A DNA stretch of 64,000 nucleotides, taken from Escherichia phage vB_vPM_PD112. Where the stretch lies: the sequence record NC_054928.1; one strand, 5' to 3'. A model generated the notes under the pieces. The model made no database searches and had not been told where the DNA came from. It worked only from the letters and a program-made list of their open reading frames with translations. Below are positions 5,140 through 52,575 of this stretch, piece by piece. Every line of letters starts with the position of its first letter. Positions within the stretch are counted from its first letter, which is position 1. A program made the translations under genes and the position numbers.

Positions 5140-5508
5140 TTAATTACCAATCGTATATTTAGGAACGAGTTTCCATTCATGTTTTTGTTTAAAAGAAATA
5201 ACTCGGAAGTTATTAGTTAAATCTTTCATAAAAGTTCTTTGACCAGGAACGATTTCAATTAGTCCCCAATCTTCTAATAGCCATGCAATCGAATCACGAC
5301 GAACTTCATCTTCTTCTGTCATTTCAACCTGGCGACCATCCATACGAAGCATTTCTTTAAAATGAACGATATAGTATAGTCCTTTTTTCTGGAGAATATG
5401 ACAGGATTGATACAGAACTTTATCTTTATTATTAGCAATTCCCATACGAGTCAGAGTTTCTTTAACTTTCAGAAAATCTTCAGGTTTTTTAAGAGTAATT
5501 TCAATCAT
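5140..5508 (-). CDS. regA: translational repressor RegA
   Basis: 122 aa, matches T4 RegA (MIEITLKKPEDFLKVKETLTRMGIANNKDK). Confidence 0.9.
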   Translation of the reverse strand: MIEITLKKPEDFLKVKETLTRMGIANNKDKVLYQSCHILQKKGLYYIVHFKEMLRMDGRQVEMTEEDEVRRDSIAWLLEDWGLIEIVPGQRTFMKDLTNNFRVISFKQKHEWKLVPKYTIGN

Positions 5509-28515: not shown

Positions 28516-28779
28516 TTATTTTAATGTTCGCCAAATTTTTACTGCTTCGCGACGAGATACTTCTACAGCTCCAAGTTCTACAGCTTTTTGGCGTCGCCGA
28601 GCGTGTAAGTCATAATGTTTAATGCGTTTATCTTGAAACCAAGAACGTTTCATTCCTATTGCTTCTGCCATTTCGTGAAGCTCTTCAATATCTCCATCAG
28701 TGAACATATGACAATTTTTAGTTGGATGACCGCGAAGTTTCCATCCATGATTCATTAAAACATCTACGTAAACTGTCAT
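28516..28779 (-). CDS. conserved hypothetical protein
   Basis: 87 aa ORF (…KHYDLHARRRQKAVELGA…). Confidence 0.45.
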   Translation of the reverse strand: MTVYVDVLMNHGWKLRGHPTKNCHMFTDGDIEELHEMAEAIGMKRSWFQDKRIKHYDLHARRRQKAVELGAVEVSRREAVKIWRTLK

Positions 28780-28959
28780 TGATTCTTCTCCAAATAAGTT
28801 TCGATAATTTTCTGAGCGAGATAAACTGCATTATCTTCAGTTGCATCTTCTAAGAAACTTTCAAAACACTCTGAAATTTCTTCTGTGTCAATCAACTTTT
28901 TTACTTCAATTGGTGTAATTTTCATTTTGTTTTTCCGTTTAAGTGTTTGTTTTGATAGT

Positions 28960-28992: not shown

Positions 28993-29022
28993 CGTTTTGT
29001 GAAAAATTTTTGAAATAAAAAA

Positions 29023-29040
29023 GGGAGCCCGAAGGCTCCC
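29023..29040 (-). terminator. intrinsic terminator
   Basis: gggagcccgaaggctccc hairpin followed by T-run on minus strand. Confidence 0.65.
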
Positions 29041-29042
29041 TA

Positions 29043-30056
29043 TCATTTATAATAACTTCGGTGGTTTTCAAGATAGACCTTCTCAAGGAAGTCATCCCAG
29101 AAACTCATGTCTACTGTTTTAGGCATACCGTTCTTAGAAGCTTCAGTAGATGCTGCTTCTACTTGATCGACCACATCTTCCAAAAACTCTTGAACCGTTT
29201 TAAATGGATGTTTACCCAACTTCACGTCAAGAATAAATGGAGCGTCTTGAAGTGGATAAACCAAGTCACCAGTTTTGTAAATTTCCAATAGTTGAAGTCC
29301 ACCACGACAAGCATGGCTCAGAGCTTTCCAGTCAATACCTTCGTTGGCTTTGGCCTTACGGGCACGTTCACCATATTCAGCATCTAATTTGTTCAGTGAC
29401 TGCTTAAGCTCAATAAGAGAAAGCGTTGTCTGATATTTACGACCCAACACAGTGTAGAACATTTGCGGGCCTGTTTTCTCATAATTATGGAACACCCATT
29501 CACAGAACTCGTTTTCTGGAAGACGATGCTTAATATCTTCAACTTTAGTGCGACGAAGTCTATCAGGGATTCCTTCTTGATAGTCGACCCACTGGTCAGG
29601 GATTTGATTAACTACTTTCAATACATCACGTAATGCGGCCAAACGAGAACCCTTGACACCGTATTTAGAAGCTTGCTTACGGACATATCCTAAATAGGAT
29701 TTCATGTTAGTCGTATAAAAACGAGAACGGTTGTCTTGAATAAACTTCCACACATCAGGCAAATCAGATTTAACCACTAGCTCAGGTGGAGTGTGAAGCA
29801 TATCTAATGCTACAGTTTCACCATCTGCTGCTAATTTAAAGAAATACTTAAGACTGTATAGTTCATGGTCAATATCATCTTTAGTGTTTTTAGATGATGT
29901 GTTGTTAGTGTTTTTACTCATGTGCTCTTTAACGTTTCCAATAAGAATATCACGAGCAGGAGGAACAAAGATTTCTTTAAAATCTACATCAGATTCTGGA
30001 GTAGAAGTTCCATAAAGATGACTACCAAAATAACTTTTCATTACTGTTTTCATCAT
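29043..30056 (-). CDS. Pol-beta-superfamily nucleotidyltransferase-fold protein
   Basis: N-terminal GSHLYGTSTPESDVDF (G-S...D-x-D) with downstream acidic residue; 337 aa. Confidence 0.55.
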   Translation of the reverse strand: MMKTVMKSYFGSHLYGTSTPESDVDFKEIFVPPARDILIGNVKEHMSKNTNNTSSKNTKDDIDHELYSLKYFFKLAADGETVALDMLHTPPELVVKSDLPDVWKFIQDNRSRFYTTNMKSYLGYVRKQASKYGVKGSRLAALRDVLKVVNQIPDQWVDYQEGIPDRLRRTKVEDIKHRLPENEFCEWVFHNYEKTGPQMFYTVLGRKYQTTLSLIELKQSLNKLDAEYGERARKAKANEGIDWKALSHACRGGLQLLEIYKTGDLVYPLQDAPFILDVKLGKHPFKTVQEFLEDVVDQVEAASTEASKNGMPKTVDMSFWDDFLEKVYLENHRSYYK

Positions 30057-30062
30057 TCAGCC

Positions 30063-30515
30063 TTATATTCCAATAACAGGACACACTTTAGCTTTACGAG
30101 CTTTTAAAAATTCAACGATAATCGATTTCTTGGGTTGAATAGGAGGTAAACCTTTATACGCCCTATCAATGTTTTCTACGTGTAAAGCATAATCCTTTTT
30201 CCATTTATAATCTTTATATTTTTCACGCAAATGTGCAGGAATAACAAATGAACCGATAATAAGTAAAACAACAAAAAGCGCAAGTATAAATGCCGATGGA
30301 AGAAGAATCCATAAACTACCGAAAATAAGCCAACGTTGTAGGCTTTCTGCACAAATAATTGTTAGCCCTACGAGTATAGCACATCCAAAAATAGAAACGA
30401 AAAATGTAGGAATGGCAATAGACCAAAAATATGCGCATAGTGTCTTAGGTCGTTGCCATTCATCGTTAAACAATTTGAATAATTTATAGTGCCAAGAGTT
30501 TTCATTAATAATCAT
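30063..30515 (-). CDS. membrane protein (two to three TM segments)
   Basis: 150 aa, long hydrophobic stretches. Confidence 0.45.
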   Translation of the reverse strand: MIINENSWHYKLFKLFNDEWQRPKTLCAYFWSIAIPTFFVSIFGCAILVGLTIICAESLQRWLIFGSLWILLPSAFILALFVVLLIIGSFVIPAHLREKYKDYKWKKDYALHVENIDRAYKGLPPIQPKKSIIVEFLKARKAKVCPVIGI

Positions 30516-30517
30516 AA

Positions 30518-31039
30518 TTATCCTTTCATTGAAGGTGTAACAGTTGTTAAATACTTAATCATAGCCTCAGCTTCTGATTTTGATAATGAAATTTCTCCAT
30601 TGTTTTGACGAATAGAAATAAAATCCGGATGACGGTCACCACCAGCTTTTAAAACACACATATAAGTATCAGTTTCATCTTCAATATTTGAAATGATTGA
30701 AGCAGTTCCACATGAATGCGGTTTTTGATAAATCAATACAGCTTTTCTTCCGCCATTTGACTGTTCATAAACTTTTAATACATCAAACAAATCACTTCTT
30801 TTATCAATAGCTAAAATGTTATTTTCATCTTCAATGTTAAATCCTTCGGATACTTCATAAAGTGTCACCCATAAATCGCCAATATCAATAACAGCGTTCA
30901 CTTTTCCATGACTTTCAAGAGCATGACAAATTTTCTTGATTTCGTCATAACTCATTTTAATAATATCATCTCCTTGACTAAGAAAGATGTCATTTTTAAA
31001 TTCAACACGAATTAAACCGCTTCCACTTGAAATAAACAT
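30518..31039 (-). CDS. hypothetical protein, paralogue of the next gene
   Basis: 173 aa; shares GFNIE..., IRQ... and C-terminal A-x-x-YL-x-V-P-M motifs with 31046..31609. Confidence 0.5.
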   Translation of the reverse strand: MFISSGSGLIRVEFKNDIFLSQGDDIIKMSYDEIKKICHALESHGKVNAVIDIGDLWVTLYEVSEGFNIEDENNILAIDKRSDLFDVLKVYEQSNGGRKAVLIYQKPHSCGTASIISNIEDETDTYMCVLKAGGDRHPDFISIRQNNGEISLSKSEAEAMIKYLTTVTPSMKG

Positions 31040-31045
31040 ATTTCC

Positions 31046-31609
31046 TCACTTTGAAATCATAGTTGGAATAACAGAATCAAGATAAGTCTTTAGCGCAATA
31101 GCTTCGTCTTTGGTAAATGTGACAATATGTGCTCGAGAATCATCAATTTGACGAATAGTTAAGACATCTCCTTCTTCATAGCATTTTGATACATTTAAAA
31201 CAGTTTCATCATTCTGATCGCACTGATCGCAAGCGTTAGTAATAATAGCATTGCAATTTTTAAGCCATTTTAAACTATGTTTTCTTTCATTAGAATAATA
31301 AAAATATTTAATGTAAGTTATAAAATTATCCCAATTATTAATTGATAAGCATATTGACTCGCTTTCAATGTTAAATCCTGGGCATAAAGAATAGAAATGA
31401 ATTTTATGCTCATCATTAATGCTTACAATTTTATCAGTATAAGGATATTCAATTTGGGTTAAATGAATGATTTCACTAGGCGTAAAATATAGCATATCGT
31501 CTTCTTGCGTCAAACGATACATGTTATTTACTTTTTCTATAGCCAATTCACCAAAAAGCGGACTAACTTCTAGTACTAATCGTTTCATATTAATCCTTTT
31601 TATTGGCAC
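31046..31609 (-). CDS. hypothetical protein, paralogue of the preceding gene
   Basis: 187 aa; shared motifs as above. Confidence 0.5.
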   Translation of the reverse strand: MPIKRINMKRLVLEVSPLFGELAIEKVNNMYRLTQEDDMLYFTPSEIIHLTQIEYPYTDKIVSINDEHKIHFYSLCPGFNIESESICLSINNWDNFITYIKYFYYSNERKHSLKWLKNCNAIITNACDQCDQNDETVLNVSKCYEEGDVLTIRQIDDSRAHIVTFTKDEAIALKTYLDSVIPTMISK

Positions 31610-31868
31610 GAATTTGTTCTAAAATTTTAGAATATTCCTTTGTATCAGATTTACGTACAATTGATACACTATAAGGCATACTATCGGTGTCTTTTATAAA
31701 GCGTTCCAAATGACACTCTAACAAAATTTCTGGATTATAAATCGTGTACATCAAATTACCTGTTGCTCCACGATATTGGCAGATTTCTACTGATTGAACA
31801 CCATTCCATAATTTTGTTAAAACTAAATCACCTACTTCTAATTTAGGAAAGCCCATGTTATTCACCAA
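31590..31868 (-). CDS. hypothetical protein
   Basis: 92 aa ORF. Confidence 0.4.
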   Translation of the reverse strand: MVNNMGFPKLEVGDLVLTKLWNGVQSVEICQYRGATGNLMYTIYNPEILLECHLERFIKDTDSMPYSVSIVRKSDTKEYSKILEQIRANKKD

Positions 31869-32043
31869 TTAAAGTTTCAATATAAGAATCAAGATTTACT
31901 TTAGCTTCTTCCATAAGAGTTTTGTATTTAATCTTGTTAGCATGTCCGGAGAAAGCTGATTCATCAATAATTGTTGATGTATGAACAGCTTTACTATACG
32001 TCTCAATTAATTCTCTTAATTTAAAAGCCTGCTCACTTGTCAT
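31858..32043 (-). CDS. hypothetical protein
   Basis: 61 aa ORF. Confidence 0.35.
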   Translation of the reverse strand: MTSEQAFKLRELIETYSKAVHTSTIIDESAFSGHANKIKYKTLMEEAKVNLDSYIETLIGE

Positions 32044-32171: not shown

Positions 32172-32205
32172 GATTACTATACCATAACCTTGCCAACTTG
32201 TAAAC
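32172..32205 (-). promoter_or_regulatory. T4-type early promoter
   Basis: Minus-strand read GTTTACAagttggcaaggttatggTATAGTAATC. Confidence 0.5.
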
Positions 32206-32370
32206 CATTAAATGACGTTTTCAATAAAATTCTGAAGCTTTGTATGAGCATCAACCATGATTTTCATTTCTTCTTTGGCGAAAGCTGTACCTCTTTCCCG
32301 AGCAGAACACTCATAGTCAGAAACTGCATTAGCATATTCTTCAATTAGTTTCATTAAAAACATCTGCTTT

Positions 32371-32565
32371 TCAGTTTTCATTATTCCACCTAATCATTTC
32401 AAGATATTGAACTAACTTAGCTTTGGATTTATCCAAATCCTTTTTAGCTGCTTCTATACCGTCGTATGAATATCCTTCACAATGCTCAACTGCCAATTGA
32501 TATGAATCTATTTCAATATCACGTGCTAATTTAATGATTTTTTCAAACTGTTCGCGTGTTAGCAT
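32371..32565 (-). CDS. hypothetical small helical protein
   Basis: 64 aa ORF. Confidence 0.35.
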   Translation of the reverse strand: MLTREQFEKIIKLARDIEIDSYQLAVEHCEGYSYDGIEAAKKDLDKSKAKLVQYLEMIRWNNEN

Positions 32566-32567
32566 AA

Positions 32568-32786
32568 TTAAACTCTCGTATTATGATCGATAATTTCATC
32601 AAGAAACATATCTAACGCTTCTACAGCATTATCAACTTTAGCTTCAAGTTCTTCAATACCTGATAAGGCAAAGTTAATGCGTTCCTCATCTGCTTTACGA
32701 ATTGAAGCCACTAATTCCTTGATTTTATCCGCTTGTTCGATACTAATCATTATTCCACCACATATGAAAGAGAGAATATTGCACAC
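32568..32786 (-). CDS. hypothetical small helical protein
   Basis: 72 aa ORF. Confidence 0.35.
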
Positions 32787-45300: not shown

Positions 45301-45377
45301 GGTCGAGGCAGAAGGATTCTAACCTTCAACCAACGGATTAGAAATCCGTTGCTCTATACAATTGAGCTATGCCCCGT
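45301..45377 (-). tRNA. tRNA-Arg (anticodon UCU)
   Basis: Hand-folded cloverleaf on minus strand, 7 bp acceptor stem, CCA encoded. Confidence 0.7.
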
Positions 45378-45379
45378 AA

Positions 45380-46045
45380 TTAAAATTTCATTTTTCGACC
45401 TTTAAACCATCCTTCTGGAATTGGGTCAGTTTTCTTAATACGTTTAGAAACTTTTTCATCTAATGAATGAATCCACATCATGCCAAATTGGGAATTCTTT
45501 TCACCTTGTTGGTGTTTATTTCTGGCGTGAGATTCTTTCATTTTATTAATAGTTTCAGGAGTATGATGCTTATTTAAAAATCTGCTATTATTTAAAAATT
45601 TTTCCCTGTATTCAGGAGTTGACCACAAGCGTTTAAATACATTTGAACCATTTTTACGATATTTTTCTTGAAGTAAAATATCATTTTTAAAACGTGACTT
45701 AAACGATTTAGCTCCTTTTAAACTAGCGTCTTTCTTCTGATTTAGCATCTCAGGAATATTTATATGATCCCATCCACCTTCACCGCCAAGTTTTAAATTA
45801 TACACATCAGGTCTATTTAAAAACTCTTCTGTGACAATATTTTTCTCGGCTTCAAGCATAGATTCTTTATCGTCAAAATATTCTAATATTTCTTTAGAAA
45901 AATTTTCTATACCATACCTGTCTTGGGCTCTTTTTAATAATTTACCAGAACCCATATATCCATCATCTAAATTTTCGGTAGAATGCACACCAATATAAAT
46001 TTTATTATTAATTTTATTTGTTATTTTATAAGCGTAATGGAACAT
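45380..46045 (-). CDS. segB: GIY-YIG homing endonuclease SegB
   Basis: 221 aa; YKITNKINNKIYIGVHST...GYMGSG; inside the tRNA cluster as in T4. Confidence 0.85.
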   Translation of the reverse strand: MFHYAYKITNKINNKIYIGVHSTENLDDGYMGSGKLLKRAQDRYGIENFSKEILEYFDDKESMLEAEKNIVTEEFLNRPDVYNLKLGGEGGWDHINIPEMLNQKKDASLKGAKSFKSRFKNDILLQEKYRKNGSNVFKRLWSTPEYREKFLNNSRFLNKHHTPETINKMKESHARNKHQQGEKNSQFGMMWIHSLDEKVSKRIKKTDPIPEGWFKGRKMKF

Positions 46046-46086
46046 AAATATCTCCTATTTCTAAGAGTATTTATGTTCCCAAAATA

Positions 46087-46160
46087 TGACCCAGACCAGA
46101 TTCGAACTGATAACCTTTCCCTTATGAGGGGACTGCTGCTAACCATTGAGCTACAGGGCC
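46087..46160 (-). tRNA. tRNA-Ile (anticodon CAU)
   Basis: Hand-folded cloverleaf; T-loop TTCGAAT; anticodon loop CTCATAA. Confidence 0.6.
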
Positions 46161-46166
46161 TTGATA

Positions 46167-46239
46167 TGCTGATTGACGGAATCGAACCGCCGACCTTCTC
46201 ATTACAAGTGAGTTGCTCTACCTACTGAGCTAAATCAGC
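46167..46239 (-). tRNA. tRNA-Thr (anticodon UGU)
   Basis: Hand-folded cloverleaf; anticodon loop CTTGTAA. Confidence 0.7.
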
Positions 46240-46246
46240 GAAATTA

Positions 46247-46333
46247 CGGAGGCGATAGGATTTGAACCTATGAGTCGCCGGAGCGACTGCCGGTTTTCAA
46301 GACCGGTGCATTAAACCACTCTGCCACGCCTCC
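46247..46333 (-). tRNA. tRNA-Ser (anticodon UGA), long variable arm
   Basis: Hand-folded; anticodon loop CTTGAAA; 87 nt. Confidence 0.7.
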
Positions 46334-46335
46334 AG

Positions 46336-46409
46336 TCTCCGTGGCAGGATTTGAACCTACGACATTCTGCTCCCAAAGCAGACGCTCTACCAAACTGAGC
46401 TACACGGAG
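46336..46409 (-). tRNA. tRNA-Pro (anticodon UGG)
   Basis: Hand-folded; anticodon loop TTTGGGA. Confidence 0.7.
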
Positions 46410-46421
46410 TAAATTAAATTT

Positions 46422-46493
<72 letters not shown>

Positions 46494-46499
46494 AAACTT

Positions 46500-46586
46500 T
46501 GGTACGAGAAGTGGGACTCGAACCCACAAGGAAATCATTCCGCAGCATTTTAAGTGCTGTGCCTTTACCAATTTGACCATTCTCGC
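46500..46586 (-). tRNA. tRNA-Leu (anticodon UAA), long variable arm, CCA encoded
   Basis: Hand-folded; anticodon loop CTTAAAA. Confidence 0.7.
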
Positions 46587-49974: not shown

Positions 49975-50023
49975 ATGTTTCTCCTCAAATTTAGTTAAGA
50001 TTATAACACATGAAACTGAAGCA

Positions 50024-50554
50024 TTAAACTTCTGCTATAATTTTGCCATCTTTTTCTACTTGAAAATACGTATAAGGAATCGTTGCTGTACATACTAAAG
50101 CCGGGTCTGAATCTTCAGTGTAGCTAAATTCTACTTCAGACAGGTCAGAAACCCAAGGCTTATAAAAATTTATTGACATCACGATTTCAGTTTTACTATT
50201 ATCTAAAATGTAAAGCGTAATGTATTCAGGACCTGTTTTTTGGGCAGTATTTTCGCCTGTAAGATAGTTACTAGTTCCTAGCATCCATTCATACATTCCT
50301 ATCCACGACTTAAGTTCTTCATCAACTATAAATCTCACAATGAGTGGGTCGTACTCAAATGTAACACCTGGACGTTGTGCTCGGCCTAGTCCAAACGGCC
50401 CAGTCACGGTATCAGTAACAGGTATTCTAATTCCTGGAATAGGAACTGATTGAGCATTTAAAGTAAAAGCAGATGTAGTATTACTATGTGGTATTGATAC
50501 TACAAAGTTAGTTGTATTTGCTTGGTTAAAAATTTGTTGTAGTGCTTGTGACAT
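50024..50554 (-). CDS. 3: tail completion / sheath stabiliser gp3; ATG at 50554 (MSQALQQIF)
   Basis: 176 aa from the internal ATG behind GAGGAA RBS; T4 gp3 length. Confidence 0.85.
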   Translation of the reverse strand: MSQALQQIFNQANTTNFVVSIPHSNTTSAFTLNAQSVPIPGIRIPVTDTVTGPFGLGRAQRPGVTFEYDPLIVRFIVDEELKSWIGMYEWMLGTSNYLTGENTAQKTGPEYITLYILDNSKTEIVMSINFYKPWVSDLSEVEFSYTEDSDPALVCTATIPYTYFQVEKDGKIIAEV

Positions 50555-50660
50555 ATATTCCTCATAATGCTTTATAAATGTTGGTGGTATAATGGGTCTA
50601 AGTCCCTTCCATTCAATTCCAATTAGAACAAACAATAGAAAAGAATGGAAGATAATAGAA

Positions 50661-51485
50661 TTAGATATTTGACCAGACTTTGTTTGCAGAGAAACGTTTT
50701 CCTTTTGAAACGAACTGCTGAAGTGGCATCAACACAACGTTCGCCCAGTCTTTCGGGGCGATTTCAACAAGGCTACCCATAATATTACCAGGTATATATG
50801 CCTTAATCATTTGGTCTGCACCCCTAAATCCTTTCACTTGACTCCAATCAATTTTTAATTTTGTTTTATTAGTAATAGTAGGTGTATTTGAATATTGCTT
50901 TAAAAGCTCTTCTAGGAATTGCTGACGAGCTTTAGGTGGAATATAGTGCAAGTTTAATCCATACATTAAATTGTGTTTACCTAAACCGAGGTAAATTATC
51001 AAAGGAAATTTATCCCAGTAAGGAAGAGTTTCCTTGTGTTTAGCATCATAAGCAAAAGCATATATTCGTCCCGGCTGCGGGCGAACAACTTTATGTCCTT
51101 TTACCTGCTTAATAGTTTCAGCAAACCACTTTCTGGTTTTATTATTAATTGCTGCGCCTTCATTACGAATTTTATCACGCAATGTTTGTCTGAATGAATT
51201 TATCATAAGCAGTTGTCTTTCTTGCTTATTGAGTTTATTCATTGGTTTTGATTCAAGCTTTTGAATCTTTTCGGCTGTTTTAATTCCTGAAGCATATTTT
51301 GACATTGCCGAAGTAAACGTAGAGTATTTGATTCCTCTTTCTTCAGCAAATTGCTTTCCTGTCATTCCTTTTGCTTTGGCCTTTTTGTATTCAAGACCTA
51401 TCTGAATCCATTTCTTTTCGTTTAATGATTGCTTAACCTTTGGAACTTGGGGAGTGCTTTCATTAATTATTTGAAAAATAGCCAT
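50661..51485 (-). CDS. 2: DNA end protector gp2
   Basis: 274 aa, T4 gp2 length and synteny. Confidence 0.85.
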
Positions 51486-51937
51486 TATGCCCCCTTAAAG
51501 CCAAGAGCTCGTAATCCATCTTCTGTTAAAATTCTAAATTTTATTCCACGCTTTTCAGCTAAAGCTTGCGCTGCTTTCCATTTGTCAGTATTAACAGAAT
51601 ATGTATAAATTTCATTCATAAATCTTTTCTTCGCTGCAGTTGTTAGATGTGCCGGTTTAACTGGTGGTTGTGTTTCTTTTTTAGGTTTTATTTCAATAAA
51701 AAATTCTTGTCCAGAAGAATCTTTCATCCAAATATCCATGAAGTATCTACGTTTTTTCCCTTCTGCATTACAAAAATAAGGAATTACTGCTGTTTCACTA
51801 CCCCATGCAATAATTTCTGGATTTTTATCTAACCATTCAAAAAAGAATTTTTCCCAATTTGATCTATACGTAATTTTTTTAGGGTCACCTCTATATTTTG
51901 ATATATTTTTAGGAACCCATTTTCCAGAATATGCCAT
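51485..51937 (-). CDS. 4: head completion protein gp4
   Basis: 150 aa, T4 gp4 length and synteny. Confidence 0.85.
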
Positions 51938-51948
51938 TGGATTCTCCT

Positions 51949-51956
51949 TATAAATA
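51949..51956 (+). promoter_or_regulatory. late promoter TATAAATA for gene 53
   Basis: Exact TATAAATA about 30 bp upstream of the gene 53 ATG. Confidence 0.6.
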
Positions 51957-51963
51957 GATAATA

Positions 51964-51971
51964 TATTTATA
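51964..51971 (-). promoter_or_regulatory. late promoter TATAAATA on minus strand for gene 4 (divergent pair)
   Basis: Plus-strand tatttata is the reverse complement of TATAAATA, upstream of gene 4. Confidence 0.45.
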
Positions 51972-51984
51972 AACAGGAGGGCCC

Positions 51985-52575
51985 ATGCTCTTTACATTTT
52001 TTGATCCGATTGAATATGCGGCCAAAACGGTGAATAAAAACGCGCCGACTATTCCTATGACAGATATTTTTAGAAACTATAAAGACTATTTTAAACGCGC
52101 TCTTGCGGGATATCGCTTACGTACTTATTATATCAAAGGTTCACCACGCCCGGAAGAATTAGCAAATACTATATATGGAAATCCGCAGTTGTATTGGGTT
52201 TTATTGATGTGTAATGATAATTATGATCCGTATTATGGATGGATTACTTCGCAAGAAGCTGCTTATCAAGCATCTATACAAAAATACAAAAACGTAGGTG
52301 GAGACCAAATAGTATATCATGTGAATGAGAATGGTGAAAAATTTTATAATTTAATATCATACGATGATAATCCATATGTTTGGTATGACAAAGGCGATAA
52401 AGCTAGAAAATATCCTCAATATGAAGGAGCACTTGCTGCGGTCGATACGTATGAAGCTGCTGTTCTTGAAAATGAAAAACTTCGTCAAATAAAAATAATA
52501 GCAAAATCAGACATCAATTCATTTATGAACGACCTTATACGTATAATGGAGAAATCTTATGGAAATGATAAGTAA
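51985..52575 (+). CDS. 53: baseplate wedge protein gp53
   Basis: 196 aa, T4 gp53 length. Confidence 0.9.
   Translation: MLFTFFDPIEYAAKTVNKNAPTIPMTDIFRNYKDYFKRALAGYRLRTYYIKGSPRPEELANTIYGNPQLYWVLLMCNDNYDPYYGWITSQEAAYQASIQKYKNVGGDQIVYHVNENGEKFYNLISYDDNPYVWYDKGDKARKYPQYEGALAAVDTYEAAVLENEKLRQIKIIAKSDINSFMNDLIRIMEKSYGNDK

Follow-up and report, generated by a model that had tools for sequence, protein, structure and literature searches.

The window, a stretch of 64,000 nucleotides (nt) from Escherichia phage vB_vPM_PD112 (NC_054928.1), carries two adjacent minus-strand genes, mobD.1 (31046..31588) and ORF097c (30518..31039), which encode related proteins of 180 and 173 amino acids (aa). On balance, we favor the reading that the two genes are functional accessory genes, that their proteins are anciently diverged MobD.1 paralogues with the domain plan of Pur-alpha, that these form dimers through the C-terminal domain, and that the N-terminal domain engages a basic partner. 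The bare paralogy is already recorded in annotation: ORF097c is annotated as "similar to mobD.1" in the RB14 GenBank record, RB32ORF096c is annotated as 'replaces mobD', and both domains are curated Pfam families. The present analysis adds the Pur-alpha-like structural reading, the atypical status of T4, and the dimerization hypothesis.

The first-pass annotation had described a tandem duplicated gene pair in a phage accessory block, and both the tandem paralogy and the accessory setting were borne out. In a BLASTP comparison, mobD.1 and ORF097c aligned end to end with 50/179 identities (28%), 50% positives, and E = 2e-11, which is significant similarity. The internal blocks noticed earlier (LYEVSEGFNIEDENNILAIDKRSD and FYSLCPGFNIESESICLSINNWDN) and the two C-terminal tails were each aligned with each other in this comparison. 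The Smith-Waterman score was 113, compared to 31.5 ± 5.4 (maximum 62) in 2000 shuffles (z = 15). The Pfam domain T4_y05I_N (PF24449, cut-off 24.9) was detected at E = 2.4e-34 (118.4 bits) in ORF097c and 1.7e-40 (138.1 bits) in mobD.1, and T4_y05I_C (PF24448, cut-off 27) at 4.6e-23 (81.8 bits) and 1.9e-23 (83.0 bits), respectively. The two domains occurred in the same order in both proteins, which also matched PHROG 1502. Since the end-to-end alignment, the shuffle score, the ordered Pfam domains, and the shared PHROG agree, the paralogy is real. At the DNA level, the remnant of duplication was a single 23-nt block encoding GFNIE, 87% identical, with copies 534 nt apart.

By their domain scores and genomic position, both proteins are assigned to the T4 MobD.1/y05I family (UniProt Y05I), whose place in the nrdC.11-tk early block was the same in T4, T6, RB14, JS09, VR26, and the divergent T4-like contig L021. 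The window belongs to Tequatrovirus: the 2-kb stretch around the pair was 99.9% identical to Escherichia phage vB_EcoM_IME537 and 97.7% to T6, and about 500 other Tequatrovirus records matched it at 80-99%. The G+C content was about 35%, and the minus strand carried every gene in the part of the window around the pair. The two genes lie head to tail with 6 nt between them. The mechanical open reading frame (ORF) of mobD.1 (31046-31609, 187 aa) begins at a GTG (31609) that lies within the gene before it. Translation probably starts at the ATG at 31588, which has AAGGA ahead of it, yields 180 aa, and matches the T6 annotation. ORF097c, of the RB32ORF097c type, has GAGGA before its ATG. The mobD.1 protein of the window was 85-99% identical to those of T4, T6, and PST. 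In the searched literature, mobD.1 served solely to mark the map position of the homing endonuclease mobD, with no function given, and 'y05I' returned irrelevant matches only.

Both proteins are predicted to fall in the PC4-like fold class (Whirly/PUR/PC4), and the models suggest a three-repeat plan like that of Pur-alpha, in which repeats I and II pair within the molecule and repeat III stands single. The N-terminal domain of ORF097c (aa 1-97; 30749..31039, minus strand) is predicted to contain two beta-beta-beta-beta-alpha repeats and to be an intramolecular (type I) PC4-like domain resembling PUR repeats I-II. The N-terminal domain of mobD.1 (aa 1-101; 31286..31588, minus strand), the region of its PF24449 match, aligned with it. 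The C-terminal domain of ORF097c (aa 98-173; 30521..30748, minus strand; PF24448) is predicted to be a single PC4-like half-domain like PUR repeat III; its secondary structure was five beta strands and a helix, and the fold was assigned on the homologous mobD.1 domain. That domain of mobD.1 (aa 102-180; 31049..31285, minus strand) is likewise a predicted PC4-like half-domain and a predicted dimerization module.

In one list of structural matches, Drosophila Pur-alpha repeats I-II (3k44; 95 residues, 2.5 Å) scored 10.5, SsgA-like protein and MRP2 8.2 each, MRP1 and Whirly PBF-2 7.2 each, and StWhy2 6.4. For the C-terminal domain, the matches were the KhtT N-domain (7.8), Pur-alpha repeat III (5fgo; 62/62 residues, 2.0 Å; 7.0), human PURA repeat III (6.8), Borrelia Pur-alpha (6.5), MoSub1 (6.1), PC4 (5.6), YdbC (5.0), and the phage T5 PC4 homologue (4.9). 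A BFVD fold search recovered nothing beyond members of the family itself and weak matches to Bacillus-phage proteins that lack annotation. The C-domain matches are single-repeat type II PC4-like proteins, which are complete only as inter-molecular dimers; a lone PC4-like repeat is unlikely to exist folded, and Pur-alpha is the only protein known with both the intramolecular and the intermolecular type (PMC7549692). A weak internal signal was obtained between repeat I and the C-domain (hhalign P = 1.3e-4; LTQEDD opposite IRQIDD), and hhalign gave no signal between repeats I and II or between repeat II and the C-domain. Filing the proteins in the PUR family was rejected after the sequence profile test failed; the likeness to Pur-alpha in the models would be one of plan.

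Because the single repeat in every characterized relative is a half domain completed by a second copy, the two proteins would act as dimers through the conserved C-terminal half-domain. Each protein may pair with itself or, in phages that have both genes, mobD.1 may pair with ORF097c; heterodimers of Pur-alpha and Pur-beta through repeat III are considered plausible (PMC7549692). The C-terminal similarity quoted in the first-pass annotation falls in the helix of the predicted dimerization module, and this helix was invariant in 17/17 ORF097c sequences and nearly so in mobD.1.

The N-terminal domain may bind a basic partner, presumably a protein, rather than single-stranded DNA (ssDNA) or RNA in the manner of Pur-alpha, Whirly, or PC4. 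A protein partner is placed ahead of nucleic acid since the whole family is strongly acidic: all members had an isoelectric point (pI) of 4.2-5.2 and a net charge of -6 to -24. The N-terminal domains of the two window proteins carried net charges of -9 and -8, and the best conserved motifs were acidic. The ligand is the weakest step of the model, in which a protein partner is given slightly less than an even chance and nucleic acid a lower one. A functional tie of the pair to the adjacent membrane protein ORF096c is also weakly suggested by adjacency in five lineages and by joint loss or decay in T4, T2, and Bas43.

Several observations weigh against this proposal. The likeness of repeat I to the C-domain is marginal (hhalign probability 54%), the fold comes from AlphaFold models on shallow alignments (23-28 sequences), and the predicted local distance difference test score (pLDDT) of the C-domain was only 52-77 in the full-length model. 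Neither protein gave a sequence match to the PurA (E ≤ 1), Whirly, or PC4 Pfam families, and a PDB sequence-profile search with the family profile was empty (best E = 0.31). Net charge is only a rough indicator, and an acidic protein could still have a local patch, basic or aromatic, that binds nucleic acid. Adjacency is weak as functional evidence because T4-like genomes are broadly syntenic. Furthermore, neither ORF097c nor the membrane protein can be an obligatory partner, as mobD.1 is retained in T4 in the absence of both.

It is possible, at a probability well below that of the favored reading, that the two proteins are instead classical ssDNA/RNA-binding proteins like Pur-alpha, Whirly, and PC4 that modulate, for example, phage transcription, the fate of mRNA, or recombination. 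Such a role is implied by the Pfam name 'putative transcription factor', and the best structural matches are all nucleic-acid binders (Pur-alpha, MRP1/2, Whirly, PC4/Sub1, YdbC, and the T5 PC4 homologue). Aromatic residues are abundant, at 13-20 per protein, and the neighboring nrdC.11 product is in the RlaP family, described by Pfam as RNA-repair associated. Activity on nucleic acids is known for other phage proteins of the fold, including the T5 PC4 homologue (PMC7549692). The negative charge of both N-terminal domains is unfavorable to this alternative, although the argument is indirect. A bolder extension of the acidic-dimer proposal holds that these are the first viral, and the second known, proteins to combine type I and type II PC4-like domains, that the C-terminal half-domain pairs the paralogues and also, in other T4-like phages, stand-alone C-domain or DUF7189 proteins, and that the acidic dimer acts with the always-adjacent small membrane protein on a host target. 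We regard this extension as speculative and rather improbable; if true, it would describe a new kind of early host-takeover or counter-defense module, not a nucleic-acid binder.

The alternatives about origin and fate turn on how old the pair is and on how the two genes vary. ORF097c was 26.7% identical to its neighbor mobD.1 and 30-32% identical to mobD.1 of Mosigvirus and Gaprivervirus, and in a neighbor-joining tree it was placed outside all mobD.1 orthologues with 64% bootstrap. A recent tandem duplication was thus rejected: the copies are not closest to each other and have only the 23-nt DNA block in common. The local duplication with divergence suggested by the first-pass annotation is possible, and if it occurred it was ancient. 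The pair would fit a duplication that either predated the split of the genera or led into a burst of change, or recombination from an unsampled lineage. Since ORF097c is no nearer to its neighbor and branches outside, its acquisition by recombination from a distant T4-like phage, beside its homologue, is a possibility to which we give a minority share of belief; it concerns origin only and is compatible with any function. In its favor, ORF097c is about equally distant (27-32% identical) from the mobD.1 orthologues of three genera, allele replacement between genera is frequent in the block (for example, Mosigvirus-like mobD.1 alleles in Tequatrovirus), and a second full-length copy was seen only in Tequatrovirus among the genera examined. 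Among 5.8 billion proteins and 1.84 billion cluster representatives searched, however, no donor lineage with an ORF097c-type gene as sole copy was found. A duplication would be expected to leave the copies in tandem and in one orientation, as they are, and rapid divergence soon afterwards would yield the same, modestly supported tree.

The first-pass annotation had also proposed an arms race with the host, and in full this explanation is a recent local duplication whose copies diverge under positive selection against host defenses. For the four genes mobD.1, ORF097c, ORF096c, and nrdC.11, the window and 16 other Tequatrovirus loci (12-17 per comparison) were compared by pairwise Nei-Gojobori estimates as a ratio of means. 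The gene-wide ratio of nonsynonymous to synonymous substitution rates (dN/dS) was 0.22 for mobD.1, 0.14 for ORF097c, 0.17 for ORF096c, and 0.08 for nrdC.11, with a mean dS of 0.17-0.26 across the four genes. Both paralogues are under purifying selection, with no positive selection at the gene-wide level. Their values are similar to that of ORF096c and not far above that of nrdC.11; therefore, the low gene-wide dN/dS lends the arms race no support. The explanation draws on the setting of the genes, a hyperplastic early-gene block in which close phages often differ in gene presence or absence, on at least three mobD.1 allele classes in Tequatrovirus (one of them, related to the Mosigvirus type, about 41% as similar by score), and on natural hybrid genes. 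Against it, ORF097c is at least 90% identical (93-100%) in 432 phage records, and the duplication is not recent, the paralogues being about 27% identical with scant DNA similarity. No defense or anti-defense annotation or literature was found (PHROG category 'unknown function'; PADLOC was not searched), and this analysis gave no link of the genes to a known defense or takeover pathway. We consider an arms race unlikely. Still less likely is that one copy is redundant and decaying and that the pair has no joint or distinct function. Decay of this kind would agree with the frameshifts in both genes of T2, with the truncated mobD.1 of RB14 and fPS-90, and with the absence of ORF097c from T4. It would also agree with the viable genome-reduced T4 mutants that carry a deletion spanning nrdC.11-mobD.3 (PMC9825161); mobD.1 is dispensable in T4 in the laboratory. 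Both genes are nevertheless intact and under purifying selection in most Tequatroviruses sampled, and the invariant C-terminal helix of ORF097c also argues against decay.

The block varies through recombination, the replacement of alleles, deletions, and a homing endonuclease; positive selection was not detected as a source of this variation. Three sampled Tequatroviruses carried a Mosigvirus-related mobD.1 allele with the Tequatrovirus C-terminal 45 residues, and an alternative C-terminal segment was present in four proteins (P0018-P0021). In-frame mobD.1::ORF097c hybrids, with the N-part of mobD.1 and the C-part of ORF097c, stood in place of the pair, with the gene context unchanged, in several independent metagenomic samples (e.g., protein P0017 and contigs L023-L026, with the gene at 3001-3540 of L023). 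The hybrid junction lies at a 10-nt microhomology, GATGAAACTG, located at 30670..30679 in ORF097c and 31201-31210 in mobD.1 (minus strand). In T2 (L006, NC_054931, 2440-3981), frameshifts were found in mobD.1, ORF097c, and ORF096c, and in a second T2 record the mobD.1 match was likewise in three pieces; this looks like joint decay or sequencing errors. The 56.6% tblastn identity of T2 to ORF097c, considered as a distinct type, was an artefact of these frameshifts, and the protein P0049, considered as a T2-type ORF097c, was instead an unrelated divergent variant. Bas43 carried a mobD.5::ORF097c deletion fusion and a truncated ORF096c. As a separate observation, a perfect 9-nt tandem duplication (TGCGATCAG x2) at 31214-31231 (minus strand) adds CDQ to a loop of the mobD.1 C-domain (NACDQCDQNDET); it is common to T6, fPS-90, and some others and absent from most phages.

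Most Tequatrovirus records contained the pair (about 430-450 of roughly 500). Only 47/503 records covered the T4-type junction with mobD in it, and the remainder matched the flanks only; the pair is thus the common state and T4 the exception. The IMG/VR scan gave three loci, too few for population analysis, and GenBank phage records were taken instead. An exhaustive hidden Markov model (HMM) search of the 1.84 billion cluster representatives gave 27 hits and no distant annotated relatives. One candidate relative, P0058 (1572 aa), was set aside: its E = 1e-14 adds up over 13 short stretches of a Cys-rich repeat of about 46 aa and looks spurious.

Compared with T4 MobD.1, the upstream gene of the pair is the orthologue (85-99% identical across Tequatrovirus), and the downstream gene is a paralogue whose two domains are the same and equally ordered. 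T4 has one copy only. ORF097c is 27% identical to mobD.1, lacks the 2-4-residue loops of mobD.1, and has its own HSCGT/GGDRHPD version of the C-domain. In contrast to Pur-alpha (PDB 3k44, 5fgo, 8chw), the phage proteins have no detectable PurA Pfam similarity, are acidic and viral, measure 173-180 aa, and lack Gly-rich or Q/E-rich tails, and their modeled C-domain has an extra N-terminal strand. Whirly and MRP1-MRP2 proteins, which are of type I, are strongly basic. The Whirly protein PBF-2 is a homotetramer (PMC7549692), whereas no tetramerization helix was evident in the phage proteins. The type II PC4-like proteins (PC4/Sub1, YdbC, Borrelia Bpur, and the T5 PC4 homologue 4bg7) bind ssDNA by aromatic stacking on beta-sheets (PMC7549692), whereas the phage C-domain ranges from nearly neutral to acidic and is joined to a type I domain. 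SsgA/SsgB-like proteins (PDB 3cm1) and PsiB have no sequence relationship to the pair, differ in oligomeric state (SsgB is a trimer), and are unrelated in biology.

DUF7189 (PF23819; PHROG 4844) is a probable distant relative of the y05I C-domain, judged from profile comparisons. Its members of 71-72 aa lie directly upstream of mobD.1 in VR26 (L005, 2776-2991) and in contig L021 (4339-4557), and the family is absent from the window. Hmmscan gave E = 9.4e-5 for ORF097c, below the Pfam threshold, and hhalign without P0068 gave 37% probability (P = 3.7e-4) over 58 columns. A higher hhalign probability of 95% was discarded because it was inflated by the chimeric P0068, a natural DUF7189::mobD.1 fusion. 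DUF7189 lacks the YLxSVIPTM tail.

The genes after the pair are ORF096c (30063..30515, minus strand), which encodes a 150-aa membrane protein with a phrog_944 match of 3e-47 and two long hydrophobic stretches, and nrdC.11 (29043..30056, minus strand), a nucleotidyltransferase gene (RlaP PF10127, 3.4e-11; phrog_388, 8e-137) that ends the predicted transcription unit. RlaP is described in Pfam as 'RNA repair pathway DNA polymerase beta family'. In the parts of the literature that were available, statements on nrdC.11 function were limited to its dispensability and the nucleotidyltransferase domain match. The unit has a predicted T4-type early promoter upstream of mobD.2 at 32176..32205 (minus strand; GTTTACA, 17 nt, TGgTATAGT; 10/12 with TG in a consensus scan) and a predicted intrinsic terminator after nrdC.11 at 29022..29041 (minus strand; 8-bp stem with 6 GC pairs, then a T run). 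The fPS-90 annotation has a 'predicted early promoter' and a terminator at the equivalent places. There is little space between the genes of the unit, each of which is preceded by a Shine-Dalgarno sequence of its own. From the consensus scans and the annotation of this relative, mobD.1 and ORF097c would be co-transcribed early with ORF096c and nrdC.11.

In the window, T6, and RB14, the order in the direction of transcription was mobD.2, DUF7438, Phage_tudor, mobD.1, ORF097c, ORF096c, nrdC.11, and the terminator. T4 had mobD.2, mobD.1, mobD (an HNH homing endonuclease), and nrdC.11; it was without ORF097c, ORF096c, and two small upstream genes, and mobD occupied the place of ORF097c and ORF096c. 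The order was mobD.1, membrane protein, nrdC.11 in Mosigvirus JS09; DUF7189, mobD.1, membrane protein, mobD, nrdC.11 in Gaprivervirus VR26; and DUF7189, mobD.1, membrane protein, RlaP in contig L021. In Tegunavirus TG1, a Yersinia phage (L022, 5001-5593), a gene for a 74-aa C-domain-only protein was followed by a phrog_944 gene, and base 5225 belongs both to the stop codon of the first and to the start codon of the second. A C-domain gene followed by a phrog_944 gene was found in five T4-like lineages, including TG1, in which the N-domain and RlaP are not adjacent. As an independent protein of 67-87 aa, the C-domain also occurs in other T4-like phages. Since the match of the membrane proteins to the 235-position phrog_944 profile is confined to positions 85-232, a fusion search was made, and no longer ORF096c homologue with a fused y05I_C domain was found.

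Other features of the window were also recorded. Past the nrdC.11 terminator, a DUF4031 gene (87 aa) and a 49-aa ORF occupy 28516-28925 (minus strand). In T6, RB14, and T4, nrdC.10 directly follows nrdC.11, unlike in the window, which is a further presence/absence difference. Upstream of the pair, four DUF7438 genes of 57-72 aa lie at 31858-32043, 32208-32381, 32371-32565, and 32568-32786 (minus strand). These members (ncORF101c, mobD.2a, mobD.3, and mobD.4) form a second, larger tandem-paralogue array in the same transcription block, and tk.1 of Mosigvirus JS09 is a further DUF7438 member. Seven tRNA genes are clustered at 45303-46586 (minus strand) in a T4-type tRNA region. The GC skew turned from negative to positive at about 50000-52000, consistent with a switch of transcription direction.

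The mobD.1 gene is among the many T4 early genes of no known function. T4 itself is without the second copy and the membrane-protein gene carried by most of its relatives, and because it lacks both, the pair has so far been outside the reach of T4 genetics. The structural lead is modest, as is its practical impact, the genes being dispensable in the laboratory. The Pur-alpha-like plan gives a concrete dimerization hypothesis with a protein or nucleic-acid ligand and, if true, would extend the PC4-like fold family.

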